Below, piece after piece: positions 15,952 through 23,708 of a stretch of DNA of 36,099 nucleotides. The stretch lies in NCBI GenBank assembly GCA_964418205.1, contig CAYQKO010000001.1, forward strand, positions 1-36,099, read 5' to 3'. Made by a program: the position numbers and the translations under genes. The stretch comes from an uncultured Muribaculaceae bacterium (lineage in GTDB: Bacteria; Bacillota_I; Bacilli_A; RF39; UBA660). The notes beneath the pieces are model-generated. The model had not been told where the DNA came from. It did not search any database and was given only the letters and a program-made list of their open reading frames with translations. The stretch's first letter is position 1. Each line of letters starts with the position of its first letter.

Positions 15952-16212
15952 CTAAACTTGAATCAGAACTAACTTAGTCCCATTACGGACATCCGTATTC
16001 CTTATAATCTCCACATAATTATAAACTTTCCCACTAAAAGCATTCATTAAAATAAATTTATCCTTGTTTGGAATAGTCAGATTCGTAATATCCTCAATCC
16101 CACGAAGTAACATTTCTATCACCTTATCAACCCTCTCATTAATAGGAATATATACCTCATAAGCAGAAAATATATTAGGAACAGATAGCTCAATTAAAAC
16201 CTTATTCTTCAT
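15952..16212 (-). CDS. esaB: YukD/EsaB-like ubiquitin-fold T7SS accessory protein
   Basis: An 86-aa beta-grasp-like sequence (VLIELSV....YEVYIPINERVDKVIEML......KFILMN..SGKVY...EIIRNTDVRNGTKLVLI). It overlaps the essC stop by 11 nt. The start is an ATG at 16212 with an AGGAG RBS; the ORF track uses an upstream TTG at 16221. Confidence 0.7.
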   Translation of the reverse strand: MKNKVLIELSVPNIFSAYEVYIPINERVDKVIEMLLRGIEDITNLTIPNKDKFILMNAFSGKVYNYVEIIRNTDVRNGTKLVLIQV

Positions 16213-19200
16213 CCTTATCAACTCCTACCAACTTAACCAAACTAGAAGTCCCATTCTTAACATTCCAAGCATATTGATTACTTATTTTTTCACGATGATT
16301 CTTAGAAATATCAGAAATCTTAATAACACCTTGATCGACAACATTAGAACCTATCCACAAACCATTCACATTATTTACAGAAGATGTGTACCAAGCCTCA
16401 AACACATATTTCTTTAAAGAATAAACCTGATCAACATATACAAAGGAAACATTTGACATGCTAGAAACTTTATCTAATAATTTTTTAAATTTCAATTTAT
16501 CCACTGAATTCATAAACTTATCAACATTAATGATGAAAACCACTAATTCAAACTGTGTATTTAAAATACTATGATCAATAAAATTATCAAGACTATCTAA
16601 AAACCCATTTCCATTCGTAGCACAATAACCCTCAACATTTAAATTTTTTCCTTTAAATATCTGGCCTAAATCAATAACAACCGTGGAAATATTTTTCATT
16701 TTCTTGAACAATTGAAATAAAGAAGAAACAAATGGAATAATAGATTCAATATTTTGTGCGGAAAGAATACTTGCCTTAGCGGCCTTAAAATTAAACGTCG
16801 CAACACTCAAATTATTTTTATTAAGCCCAATTGGAACATGTTCCAAATCCATAGGAATTTCATCAATAAAATCAAAAGAAACTACTTCAGGCAAAACAGG
16901 AATCCTCTTTGGCTTATAAGTATTATGATTCAATAAATCACGAGACACCTCATTCACATAAGAAATAAGTTTGTCACTATCACAAACCGTGGCACATTGA
17001 AATTCATAAGCAATTTCCTTTTTAAATAAGCCACGTCCCTCAAAACTTGCCGGAAAAACATTACCAATCTTTCCTAAAAGTCCAACATAATCATCCTTAT
17101 TATTCATATCCATAACAAAAACATGATCAAAATTTCTAGTAAACCTACCAAACAAGCCACTAGAACTAGTAACCGTTAATATCATAATAATTCCATAACG
17201 TTTCCCATCACGAGAAATTTTTATAAAAATGTCATCCATATTAGAATAAGACTCTCTAAAAACATCTAAATTATTTAAAACAAAACATAATATAGGTATT
17301 TGTTCCCCAGTAGATTTACAATACGTACTATATTCCCCATTATAATCTGCAAACATTTTTTTTCTTAAACTAATCTCATTGAGCAAAAATGAAATCATTT
17401 TGGTTATTTTCTCATCATCCCCTTGAAAAGCTATATCAGCAACATGAGGAAGATGTCCAAACGCTCTTAACGATTCTGAGCCAAAATCAATAATATAAAA
17501 ATTTATTTGAGAAGTTGTATTAAGAATAGAAGCAGAGAAAATTAAAGATTTTAAGAACATTTCTTTTCCAACACCAGAAAGGCCATAAACAATTGTATTG
17601 CCAGTTTCATCTAAAGTTAATTTTAAAACACCCTGATATTGATTCGATGGATCATCATACTCACCAATAATAGCCTCAAAAGGTGCATGATCTTCATCTA
17701 CATGATATTTTTTGATGACTTTATCAAGATAAATAACTCCAGGAATATTATCAAACCACAATTGCTTAGATTTCAAATTTTCTTTTCTAGCTAAAGTACA
17801 TATATATTGCAAAACATTAGTTAACTGATCACCCTTACTCTCCAAAATTTTCTTTCCAAGCTCATTAGGAACATTTTTATAAGAATTCAAAAGTCGATCT
17901 ACAAAATCAATAGAACGATCATTTTGCTCTTCAACAATATCTTGAGGAATATAACTTGCACCAGCCCAACCAGATTGACCCAAAACGTAAACTTCATCCA
18001 TTCCAACTTGTAAATAGAATCGACCAGCATTTTTAATTAGTGCAGCATCTGGTTTTTTTAACATCTCACTACTATCAGATGTATTTTGTACCTTCAAACA
18101 AACACGAAATTTACTATTACTCCAAATTTGATCATTCACAACTCCACTAGGTTTTTGTGTAGCCAAAATCAAATGAACCCCTAAACTTCGTCCGATTCTA
18201 GCAGTACTAATTAAATTATCCATAAAATCTGGTTGTTGATTCTTAAGCTCAGCAAATTCATCACAAATAATAAACAAATGAGGCATTGCTTCTGTTAATC
18301 TACCTTCATGAAAAAACCTTTGATACTTATAAATATCCATAGTGCTCTCTCCAAGAATTTCTCGAGCTTCATTAAATCGAACTTGTCTTCTTTTCAATTC
18401 ACTATCTATACTAATTAAAGTACGATTTAACTCATTCTTATCAAGATTTGTAATCGTCCCAGCCAAATGAGGTAAATAAATGTTATTTTTAGCATTGGCA
18501 AAAGCACCAGCCAAACCTCCGCCTTTATAGTCAATTAAAATAAAAGAAACATCATTAGGGCTATAATTTAAAGCTAAAGATAATATATAAGTAATAATAA
18601 ATTCAGACTTACCAGAACCAGTGGTACCAGCAATCAGTCCATGTGGACCGTGTTTCTTTTCGTGCAAATCCAAATAAATAGGTTGTCCTAAATCATTTAC
18701 ACCAACTAACGAACGCAAGCTCTTGGTAGAATCATTTAATCTCCAACGATTCAACAAATTAAATTGTTCCACTTTTCCAATACGATACATTTCCAAAAAA
18801 TTAATCGATTCTGGTAAATTACGGCGATCAAATTCCATTTCAATAGGAATATTTGCCAAAACTCTAGCACAATTTATCATAGGATAATTTGTGTTACTAT
18901 CCAAAACAAAGTAAGTTTGATCTTGCCTATCGGGACCTATAGCTAAAATAGCAGAAGAATCACCACTAATATTAATAAAATCATTACATTCACTAGGCAA
19001 TCTCCTTAACCTAGCATCCCTGACAACCAAACTAAATCCCAAAGAAAGAGAACTATTTAAAATATTACTAATAATATCTAACTTACGAATACTAGGATAA
19101 TCATCCGTAAAAATAAGATAATAAGGTTTAAAAGTTTCAACACTTTTTGACTCATCACTATCAGATTCTTCTTTAGAAACCAATTCTTTTTCCTTATTCG

Positions 19201-22512: not shown

Positions 22513-22526
22513 AGAAGGGGAAAAAT

Positions 22527-23708
22527 ATGAAATTTGATATTAACATAGGAACATTAAAGAACAGGTTAAACGATTTTCAATCTATAAAAGAAGAATTAGA
22601 AGAAAAATATTCCATATATTATTCAAGTGCAAAAAAAATTGAATATTGTTGGAACGACAATCTAACAAAAAGTTACATCGAATTACTAATAAAAAATGAA
22701 GCAAAAGTCAATAATTACCTACAATCCATTACAGATTATATAGAAAAAATTAAATCATTCATTTCCTTAATTGAAAAAACAATAGAATTAAACGAAGTAG
22801 AAGTTTCCTACAACATAGAAAATCAACCAAGATTCCAATTTAATGAAAACAAAATGAAAGAAGTACTAAATAAATTAACATCGCTGAAAAGCGAACTTTC
22901 AATTTGCAAAACGAAAACAAATACAAGAATAAGTGAAGCATCACATAATATTGAAAAAACAAACAATAACTATCAAAAAATGATAGAAAATATAGACAAA
23001 ATAAGTTCAAAATACACAAAAACAATCAATTTAATCTTAACAGAAACGGCCATTTTAAAAGAAAAGATAAATGAAATACCACCAAACATAATAACTCAAA
23101 ATAATTTAAAATACCAAGCAAATGAAAATGTTAATTTTAATGTAAAAGATTTTCCAATATTGACACCAGAAATATTTAATACAAACATAAATGAGAAAGA
23201 ATTAGCAAAAATAGCAATAGAAGAAATAGAGAAACAAAACTTCAATCTTGACAATCAACAAAAAGAAATAGAGAAAAATACCATAGATAACATAAAATCA
23301 AAAGATTTGAATGCCTATAAAACAAACACCAAAGAGGAAGAAGAAAAGGAAGAGGAAGAAAGAAAAAGAGTTGAATTTTCAAATAAGAAACCTGAATCAT
23401 TTAGTAATCCTACAAGTGACACGGAACCTCCTATCCAACAAAACACTATTTCAAATGAAGAAAGTGATATCATCTTCCCTCAATCAGAAAAAGAACTAAC
23501 CCCAATAGAGGAAACAAATATGAAATATGAAAATCAAAATAACGAAATCAATAAGAACCAAAACATACAAACAATAAGCCAAAAAGGCTTAGAAGATATA
23601 AAAATAAACTATACGGCTCCGAAAGATGTTGAAAATAAGAATATATCAATAGAAGAAGTGTCTCAAAATGATTTTAGAATTGAAATGAATACAGAGAAAA
23701 AGACCTAA
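22527..23708 (+). CDS. 393-aa protein with an LXG/WXG-like helical N-domain and a low-complexity N/E/K-rich C-terminal half
   Basis: It has an AGGGGA RBS. The N-terminal 190 or so aa are helical with a W-N-D turn (YCWNDNLTKSY, 22650..22658) where WXG proteins carry W-x-G. The C-terminal half is compositionally biased (EEEEKEEEERKR, NQNNEINKNQN) with no recognisable enzymatic motif. Confidence 0.6.
   Translation: MKFDINIGTLKNRLNDFQSIKEELEEKYSIYYSSAKKIEYCWNDNLTKSYIELLIKNEAKVNNYLQSITDYIEKIKSFISLIEKTIELNEVEVSYNIENQPRFQFNENKMKEVLNKLTSLKSELSICKTKTNTRISEASHNIEKTNNNYQKMIENIDKISSKYTKTINLILTETAILKEKINEIPPNIITQNNLKYQANENVNFNVKDFPILTPEIFNTNINEKELAKIAIEEIEKQNFNLDNQQKEIEKNTIDNIKSKDLNAYKTNTKEEEEKEEEERKRVEFSNKKPESFSNPTSDTEPPIQQNTISNEESDIIFPQSEKELTPIEETNMKYENQNNEINKNQNIQTISQKGLEDIKINYTAPKDVENKNISIEEVSQNDFRIEMNTEKKT

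Follow-up and report, generated by a model that had tools for sequence, protein, structure and literature searches.

A six-gene type VII secretion cassette in an uncultured member of the Bacilli, with a b-type EssC and no recognisable EssB, EssA or EsaA nearby

We analysed positions 1 to 36,099 of contig CAYQKO010000001.1 (assembly GCA_964418205.1; this whole stretch of 36,099 nucleotides (nt) is called the window hereafter), which derives from an uncultured bacterium of the Bacilli lineage RF39 and carries a compact locus related to type VII secretion systems (T7SS). The locus is an insertion into a backbone of housekeeping and sporulation genes and comprises essC and an open reading frame (ORF) of 86 amino acids (aa), both on the minus strand, a gap of 306 nt, and four ORFs on the plus strand encoding helical proteins of 107, 250, 91 and 393 aa, here called p107, p250, p91 and p393 (Table 1). 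This gene content, the coordinates, the length of the gap and the 11-nt overlap between the essC stop and the start of the 86-aa ORF (ATG at 16212) all agree with a first-pass annotation of the same sequence. All coordinates are given in window numbering, and statements on identity, homology and fold were computed from sequence.

Table 1. Positions of the cassette genes, associated elements and candidate effectors (window numbering, except where a locus of a relative is named by its L number).
Feature	Position	Strand	Basis
DUF4176 protein	10405..10725	-	Pfam DUF4176, 7e-27; beside 82-aa ORF and candidate effector
82-aa ORF between candidate effector and DUF4176 gene	10707..10955	-	no family match
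Candidate T7 effector, 1393 aa	10982..15163	-	Pfam Metallophos, shared N-terminal motif
yukD/esaB-like ubiquitin-fold protein (TsxB), 86 aa	15952..16212	-	AlphaFold2 and Foldseek
essC (TsxC), FtsK/SpoIIIE-type membrane T7SS ATPase, 1525 aa	16202..20779	-	TIGR03928, Pfam, PDB, hydropathy, motifs
Divergent intergenic region essC/p107	20780..21085		306 nt; sequence read
p107, predicted ~100-aa WXG100-superfamily protein in EsxA (TsxA) position	21086..21409	+	hhalign, jackhmmer, alignment
p250, predicted 'long WXG' protein	21406..22158	+	alignment, Pfam, hhalign, AlphaFold2
p91, small helical protein	22237..22512	+	family alignment, spacing
p393, predicted ~210-aa helical N-terminal carrier domain plus variable tail	22527..23708	+	alignment, hhalign, Pfam
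Probable bidirectional terminator	23697..23722		hairpin AAAAAGACCT-TCAATT-AGGTCTTTTT; terminator scan
Signature carriers, L003	7808-9883, 11773-13725
Signature carriers, L006	7098-9332, 17661-21263
Signature carrier, L010	1513-5259
Signature carrier, L022	18948-21476
Signature carriers, L023	18144-20276, 20782-23217
Signature carrier, L001	17934 onward

EssC and the adjacent ubiquitin-fold protein

The identity of EssC is unambiguous, as it scores 956.9 bits against the NCBIfam model TIGR03928 (T7_EssCb_Firm, cutoff 778.4), matches Pfam FtsK_SpoIIIE at 9.5e-42 and has B. subtilis YukB as its closest match in the PDB (9qks, 1.3e-116). By the NCBIfam criterion the ATPase is a b-type EssC, and the membrane-bound FtsK/SpoIIIE-type EccC/EssC ATPase of the broad T7SS core (PMC11217815) is present at the locus. 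Hydropathy confirmed the two transmembrane helices proposed in the first-pass annotation (residues ~254-275 and ~290-311), while the three P-loop modules proposed there stand by homology and not by motif: Walker A is canonical in D1 alone (GTTGSGKS at 718), that of D2 (GLSGVGKE at 1066) being degenerate. One canonical Walker A is the normal pattern of EssC (PMC13355648). What had been read as FHA-like repeats gives a weak Pfam signal here (E = 0.17) and amounts to a degenerate FHA-like N-terminus, and a PF00498 match is recorded for many EssC homologues of 36-49% identity.

The 86-aa ORF, for which a TTG at 16221 is an alternative start, gave a confident AlphaFold2 model from 31 homologues (mean predicted local distance difference test score, pLDDT, 93.6) with a beta-grasp fold. 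Foldseek searches with this model returned ubiquitin-like folds throughout, and the top template-modelling scores (0.80 and 0.79) belong to the ubiquitin-like (Ubl) domain of EccD from ESX-5 (7np7_D2, 7npt_D8), which is the T7SSa counterpart of YukD, supporting the earlier description of the ORF as ubiquitin-fold-like. The fold comparison was needed here, as YukD was not recovered when the PDB was searched with the sequence profile of the family, and the Pfam YukD model gave weak matches in 3 of 14 family members (best E = 1e-3). The protein ends in LVLIQV and thus has no Gly-Gly, so that a small ubiquitin-fold TsxB without the C-terminal Gly-Gly (PMC11217815) is found next to the ATPase. The family is large, with 945 homologues, mostly of 84 aa, in a collection of 5.8 billion proteins.

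Variations on the essC-yukD arrangement were seen in further loci. A second yukD-like gene, or a yukD-like gene upstream of essC, occurs in L011 (8366-9089), L016 (5409-5654) and L007 (9731-9976); the extra copy in L011 is preceded by a gene for an iPGM-like protein that bears a hydrophobic segment at its C-terminus and followed by a DUF4176 gene, and the same iPGM-like gene, again followed by a DUF4176 gene, is found in L020. Moreover, in an EssC clade of 38-40% identity a full-length secA directly follows essC-yukD (L024 14931-17426, L005 4470-6965); this clade has no adjacent WXG-like genes, and hpf lies upstream in L024.

Four helical proteins and their relation to WXG100

None of the four helical proteins has a transmembrane segment, as already stated in the first-pass annotation (maximum Kyte-Doolittle 19-residue mean ≤0.78), and none gave a Pfam or NCBIfam match at or above the curated cut-off. 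Matches to EssB, EssA and EsaA were sought in Pfam, NCBIfam and PDB structures and none was found for any of the four, which is in line with their earlier treatment as something other than EssB or EsaA. Compared directly with one another by hhalign, the four families gave weak signals, and comparison with validated WXG100 proteins of related loci was decisive instead; the template consisted of five Pfam-validated WXG100 proteins of L008 and L025, where they are located after yukD, and the YukD-like family, used as negative control, gave no match.

The p107 family matched this template over its full length (hhalign probability 95.3%, E = 2.4e-8), is linked across loci by jackhmmer, and found B. 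anthracis EsxB in the PDB at 7e-5 with the L008 sequences included and at 0.011 without them. In the alignment the turn reads x-x-G / G-x-D-x-x-F-L in place of W-x-G, and the gene lies where L008 and L025, which are more canonical relatives, have their WXG100 genes. Compared with a canonical EsxA of ~100 aa, p107 is thus homologous and fits in size and position while lacking the W-x-G, and by profile and position we predict it to be a WXG100 homologue that lost its W, standing in the EsxA position.

The stop of p107 overlaps the start of p250 by 4 nt. The first-pass annotation had placed the only clear W-x-G of the four proteins within p250, and the turn W48-I-G-P-N in its N-terminal hairpin is indeed the only central one, a further WIG lying at residue 7; W48 is invariant, and the turn of the family reads W-x-G-P-(D/N)-E. 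A second conserved turn of the family, A-F-(L/F)-G-x-x-Q, corresponds to A-F-F-G near residues 178-180 here. The Pfam WXG100 model matched 5 of 10 and 16 of 64 family members, and by hhalign both the N-terminal half (86.5%, E = 4.6e-6) and the C-terminal half (residues 135-230 of a 64-sequence alignment; 69%, E = 4.4e-5) matched WXG100. An AlphaFold2 model from a 6-sequence alignment places helices at 12-47, 53-96, 144-169 and 185-215 at low confidence (pLDDT 54), and Foldseek was uninformative with this model. On the alignments and profile matches, p250 probably consists of two fused WXG100-like hairpins in tandem with a linker. The family comprises 202 representatives at 50% clustering, and among the matches listed nearly all are ~210-270 aa long and match over almost their full length.

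The gene of p91 is always directly upstream of that of p393, with a spacing of -8 to +32 nt in ten loci. p91 showed no significant hhalign signal to WXG100 and ends in an acidic tail (EELEEDEDDDD), and we infer that it is a Lap-like partner or adaptor. In p393, a conserved N-terminal domain with a WXG100-like hairpin, an invariant W42 and the motif W-N-D-N is followed by a tail that varies in the family from 0 to ~300 aa, is rich in E, N and K in the window and is missing in L014 and L021. Residues 4-87 matched WXG100 by hhalign (93.4%, E = 2.4e-7), and the Pfam model matched 2 of 8 family members. In the orthologue of L022 (16319-18124, 601 aa) the conserved N-terminal carrier is followed by a Peptidase_M14 domain (zinc carboxypeptidase, residues 289-483), which may be a cell-wall-active payload. 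As judged from these alignments, p393 appears to be organised as carrier domain plus payload, in the manner of LXG proteins and unlike EssB. Its predicted resemblance to an LXG protein is one of organisation only, as the LXG model (PF04740) matched neither p250, p393 nor the 1393-aa protein described below, none of which is therefore an LXG polymorphic toxin by that model.

Two lines of evidence were set aside. The PDB profile matches of p250, p393 and p107 (without L008) were not used, being mostly to coiled-coil or designed proteins with EsxB at noise level. Likewise, p393 was considered as a divergent EssB on account of its size (~400-450 aa, as in EssB) and rejected, given that it has no transmembrane segment and no pseudokinase/YukC match, that its N-terminus is WXG100-like, and that two orthologues have no tail and another has a peptidase in its place.

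Together, the hhalign results on p107, p250 and the N-terminus of p393 indicate that all three are WXG100-derived, and the earlier conclusion that the locus has no WXG100 proteins was wrong in substance. A WXG100-family hairpin protein is hence present in the cluster (PMC11217815), the proteins of the window being below the Pfam cutoff, and with it no member is missing from the 'universal' trio, which consists of the ATPase, the ubiquitin-like protein and a WXG100 protein.

Conservation of the cassette and its surroundings

EssC homologues of 45-58% identity are found in metagenome contigs and in metagenome-assembled genomes (MAGs) that bear the label 'Mycoplasmatota bacterium' or 'Bacilli bacterium'. 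The first-pass annotation had proposed to ask whether the 107/250/91/393-aa set co-occurs with close EssC homologues, and the neighbourhood comparison found it in ten distinct loci with complete cassettes (the window, L001, L003, L006, L009, L011, L014, L021, L022 and L023), with L019 as a variant. The shared order is essC, yukD-like, ~100 aa, ~245 aa, ~88 aa and ~400 aa, and six families in the same order in ten distinct loci show that the arrangement is not due to chance. Across the cassettes essC overlaps with yukD, the genes of 100 and 245 aa follow each other at a spacing of -4 to +32 nt, and a larger gap lies between the two pairs; the four helical genes are thus organised as two tightly coupled pairs, p107-p250 and p91-p393.

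The sites of insertion differ between the loci, with flanks containing rpsF-ssb-rpsR, MreC/MreD/Ffh, RodA with a histidine kinase and iPGM, PAP2/DAGK, a glutamine amidotransferase or, in the window, tatD/metG. The flanks were covered up to 10 kb, on both sides in L001, L006, L011, L022 and L023 and over shorter distances or on one side elsewhere. In these covered flanks we found no YukC/EssB, EssA, EsaA, Ser/Thr kinase or PP2C and no recurrent transmembrane protein, so that the first-pass statement that EssA, EssB and EsaA are not recognisable is borne out for the 36-kb window and the covered flanks of its relatives. Varied insertion sites and the lack of a recurrent membrane partner in the flanks suggest that the cassette is an autonomous unit.

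All six genes lie on one strand in the relatives, and only in the window are the four helical genes inverted. The resulting divergent junction of essC with p107-p250 is also present in an independent Logan assembly (SRR10165008), in a 2.7-kb contig returned by a look-up with p250, and is therefore not a mis-join of the MAG; an exact DNA look-up with EssC had returned no record. Within the 306-nt gap, sigma-70-like hexamers lie at ~21025-21054 on the plus strand and a GGGAGG ribosome-binding site precedes the p107 ATG. Promoter-like sites were not enriched in this region over shuffled sequence, and we therefore regard its promoters as putative; the gap contains no credible small ORF and no Rfam match. 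At the other end, a hairpin with a perfect 10-bp stem and A and T runs at its sides lies between the convergent p393 and metG and probably acts as terminator in both directions.

Large polymorphic proteins encoded beside the cassette are likely its cargo. The 1393-aa protein of the window has a calcineurin-like phosphoesterase domain (residues 793-1014, Pfam Metallophos 5.4e-12) and a C-terminal HELGH motif. The first-pass annotation had noted its Gly-rich hydrophobic segment, and the region (~400-500) is indeed the most hydrophobic of the protein, yet it stays below the transmembrane threshold (Kyte-Doolittle mean 1.38 near residue 424). Its N-terminus is not of the LXG type and consists of a basic stretch followed by EDVNFEDY. 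The same organisation, a basic stretch of ~20 residues and then the acidic motif [DE][DE][IV][DN]Y-x-[DS][YFIV] at about residues 35-50, is shared by otherwise unrelated large proteins that adjoin the cassette in the window and in six other loci, with variants such as DEIDYKDF, EDVDYDTI, DEVEYSQF, EEIDYSDY, AEIDYGEV and others; the large protein flanking the cassette in L001 (2394 aa) carries an ADP-ribosyl exotoxin domain. From its recurrence in these sequences, the signature may be a lineage-specific T7 targeting signal. Of the two genes that accompany the 1393-aa protein, the 82-aa ORF has no Pfam or NCBIfam match and no homologue in the other loci and may encode an adaptor or immunity protein, and DUF4176 genes also adjoin the cassette in L003, L011, L014 and L023, likewise in the related systems L008 and L025. 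Members of the DUF4176 family are associated with T7SSb/LXG effectors as chaperones or stabilisers, and the title of one paper reportedly points to a role of DUF4176 in the stabilisation of LXG toxins.

The backbone of the window, with ~30% G+C, contains rpsI, rplM, truA, yabP/yabQ/divIC-like genes, spoVG, veg, yabG, ksgA, tatD, metG, an abrB-like gene, mfd, pth, holB, bofA, recR and dnaX, in an order that we take to be close to that of the replication-origin region of B. subtilis; the genes were partly scanned against Pfam and the remaining housekeeping genes named by eye from their translations. The gene tatD (yabD; 15187-15936, minus strand), also named by eye, separates the essC-yukD pair from the trio of candidate effector, 82-aa ORF and DUF4176 gene, so that T7 genes occupy two insertion points of a conserved metG-tatD-yabE-ksgA backbone. 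Furthermore, two adjacent, degenerate-looking ORFs of 214 and 238 aa (3740-5085, minus strand) adjoin truA, where genes for energy-coupling factor (ECF) transporter ATPases are expected; one has a weak partial ABC_tran match (E = 4e-5, residues 37-79) and the other has none.

Relation to known type VII secretion systems and interpretation

Considering the model T7SSb loci (S. aureus ess and B. subtilis yuk), the cassette shares with them an EssC that passes the b-type model and is closest to YukB, an EsaB/YukD-like gene translationally coupled to essC, WXG100-family proteins, and DUF4176 genes and large candidate effectors nearby. It differs in that the protein in the EsxA position has no W-x-G, the candidate effectors have a non-LXG N-terminus, and three extra conserved WXG-derived or helical proteins of ~245, ~88 and ~400 aa are present. 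Neither the EssB/YukC pseudokinase nor the large polytopic membrane protein EsaA/YueB was found in the window and the covered flanks, and EssA/YueC was likewise absent, with no conserved transmembrane ORF of at least 50 aa in or beside the cassette. On EssB, EsaA and EssA the locus thus fails b-type membership, at least locally.

A survey of RefSeq by Garrett, Higginson & Palmer 2024 defined the subtypes T7SSc-j, in all of which the ATPase is retained, as are the Ubl and WXG100 proteins in nearly all; all are without EssB, EssA and EsaA, and non-b variants were reported to have no T7SSa/b orthologues genome-wide (PMC11217815). The absence of EssB, EssA and EsaA is therefore less anomalous than the first-pass annotation assumed. 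Most of T7SSc-j add kinases, phosphatases, FHA proteins, EspG-like chaperones or large immunoglobulin (Ig)-rich proteins, and the gene set of the cassette matches none of them (PMC11217815); our literature search found no description of this set and no later paper adding T7SS subtypes.

T7SSg of Acetivibrio/Paenibacillus resembles the cassette in its very small predicted core of ATPase and Ubl without EssB, EssA and EsaA, which includes two non-identical WXG100 proteins and few other components (PMC11217815). In contrast to the EssC of the window, which keeps an FHA-derived N-terminus, TsgC has no FHA domains; T7SSg furthermore encodes the DUF5050 beta-propeller TsgL and lies beside a Tad pilus locus, both of which are missing here, and nothing comparable to the 245-aa, probably tandem WXG protein or to the 400-aa carrier has been reported for it (PMC11217815). 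With T7SSe/f/j and with L008 and L025 (EssC identity to the window 36% and 34%), the cassette shares EssC with FHA, YukD-like and WXG100 genes in the same order and DUF4176. Unlike the window clade, in which the FHA signal is degenerate, L008 and L025 have genes for a PP2C phosphatase, for Ser/Thr kinase(s) and for canonical W-x-G proteins; L008 also encodes a ~340-aa protein with a transmembrane segment, whose counterpart in L025 has 366 aa. Among the Pfam-scanned genes of the window and the flanks of the clade there was no TsxD kinase, TsxF PPM phosphatase, vWA, DUF6382-FHA, Ig-rich TsxI or AAA+ TsfV as in T7SSc/d/e/f/j. Family matches in window and flanks also gave no DUF5050 (T7SSg), no EspG-like chaperone with TshM/TsiM (T7SSh and T7SSi; no structure-based search for EspG-like folds was made) and no Tad locus (T7SSg and T7SSh). 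The pairs p107-p250 and p91-p393 also recall LXG/Lap1-Lap2 complexes, where a small helical gene lies directly upstream of a longer one encoding a ~200-aa N-terminal WXG-like helical domain with a variable C-terminal domain (PMC10801868; Klein et al. 2022, 2024 as cited in PMC11217815). Unlike those, they have no L-x-G motif, no Pfam LXG, DUF3130 or DUF3958 match, usually no toxin domain and no immunity gene, and they are fixed core genes and not variable cargo.

Taken together, the cassette probably represents a streamlined and self-contained variant of the T7SS that has EssC as its sole dedicated membrane protein. Of the two readings left by the first-pass annotation, that the membrane partners are encoded elsewhere or that the core is reduced or alternative, with non-canonical substrates and adaptors, comparative evidence favours the second, because the cassette travels as one set at varied sites without EssB, EssA or EsaA in the covered flanks. 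More tentatively, it might represent an eleventh T7SS subtype of uncultured low-GC Bacilli. Its membrane part would then be EssC alone, and what EssB, EsaA and EssA do elsewhere would fall to the four WXG100-derived or helical proteins, namely a degenerate EsxA, a fused tandem-WXG100 protein, a Lap-like protein and an LXG-like carrier whose tail is directed to the wall; effectors would be exported by a new N-terminal signal, the basic stretch and acidic motif described above.

Several points weigh against this interpretation. The search base consisted of contigs and not of the complete genome of any carrier. The T7SS of S. aureus and B. subtilis, which to our knowledge are the only Bacillota T7SS studied experimentally, need EssB, EssA and EsaA for secretion, and EssC keeps an FHA-like N-terminus, a region that binds EssB in T7SSb and might imply an unseen partner. 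The tandem-hairpin reading of p250 rests on moderate hhalign values (69-87%) beside a low-confidence model, and helical proteins of biased composition readily give spurious profile matches.

The strongest alternative is that a conventional T7SSb or another multi-component variant has been split, the cassette being its ATPase and substrate half and EssB, EsaA and EssA or analogues being encoded elsewhere. We consider this unlikely. It would account for an EssC above the T7SSb-type equivalog cutoff with YukB as closest solved structure and for the retained FHA-like N-terminus, and dispersal does occur, as the T7 genes of the window are themselves split around tatD; canonical T7SSb genes are however normally clustered, and the same split would be required in ten independently placed cassettes, all without partners in the covered flanks, when genome-wide absence of T7SSa/b orthologues is on record for non-b variants (PMC11217815). 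A second alternative takes the four helical genes as ordinary cargo, LXG-like effectors with Lap partners, next to a core of EssC, the YukD-like protein and an unrecognised EsxA. Although the C-terminus of the p393 family is modular and variable up to an M14 peptidase, as in polymorphic effectors, the small-plus-large gene pairs resemble the Lap-LXG arrangement and the four genes are transcribed separately from essC in the window, we judge this improbable: at EssC identities of 45-58%, no complete cassette is without any of the four or has them in another order, while downstream effectors vary freely, p250 has no toxin-like domain and a roughly uniform family length of ~240 aa, no immunity-like genes follow the four, and p107 sits where L008 and L025 have their WXG100 gene. 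That the locus is a decaying, non-functional remnant of a T7SSb without its membrane genes, as the absent b-type membrane genes and the degenerate FHA region and p107 WxG motif might suggest, is hardly credible, given six intact ORFs in ten divergent genomes, the conserved D1 Walker A, p250 W48 and p393 W42, and the 945 YukD-like homologues and 202 p250 representatives, a conservation that implies purifying selection.

If the cassette is a self-contained variant, EssC multimers would act as motor and membrane channel in one, dispensing with EssB, EsaA and EssA. The ubiquitin-like protein would bind EssC and promote its assembly by analogy with YukD and YukB, YukD being an assembly factor for YukB (PMC12637312). 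p107 and p250 could serve as EsxA-like co-secreted activator of the ATPase, an EsxA-like function being needed in T7SSb for the export of other substrates (PMC13355648; PMC11217815), and p91 and p393 might form an exported Lap/LXG-like rod whose variable C-terminus, presumably disordered in the window and an M14 peptidase in one relative, acts in or beyond the cell wall. The large polymorphic proteins with the lineage-specific N-terminal signature would be exported with the assistance of the DUF4176 proteins, the exported protein in the window being the 1393-aa phosphoesterase/HExxH protein, and the likely purpose would be interbacterial competition in a gut-like community.

How T7SS substrates pass the monoderm membrane and wall is unresolved, and which components are indispensable is debated. 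In this respect, a minimal, conserved and site-mobile cassette composed of a membrane ATPase, a Ubl and soluble partners that appear to be WXG100-derived would offer a reference for the minimal machine. The locus would also extend the 2024 T7SS catalogue to uncultured gut and rumen Bacilli that are missed by RefSeq-based surveys, would define a new ~240-aa WXG protein family, probably tandem, and may point to a new effector targeting signal.

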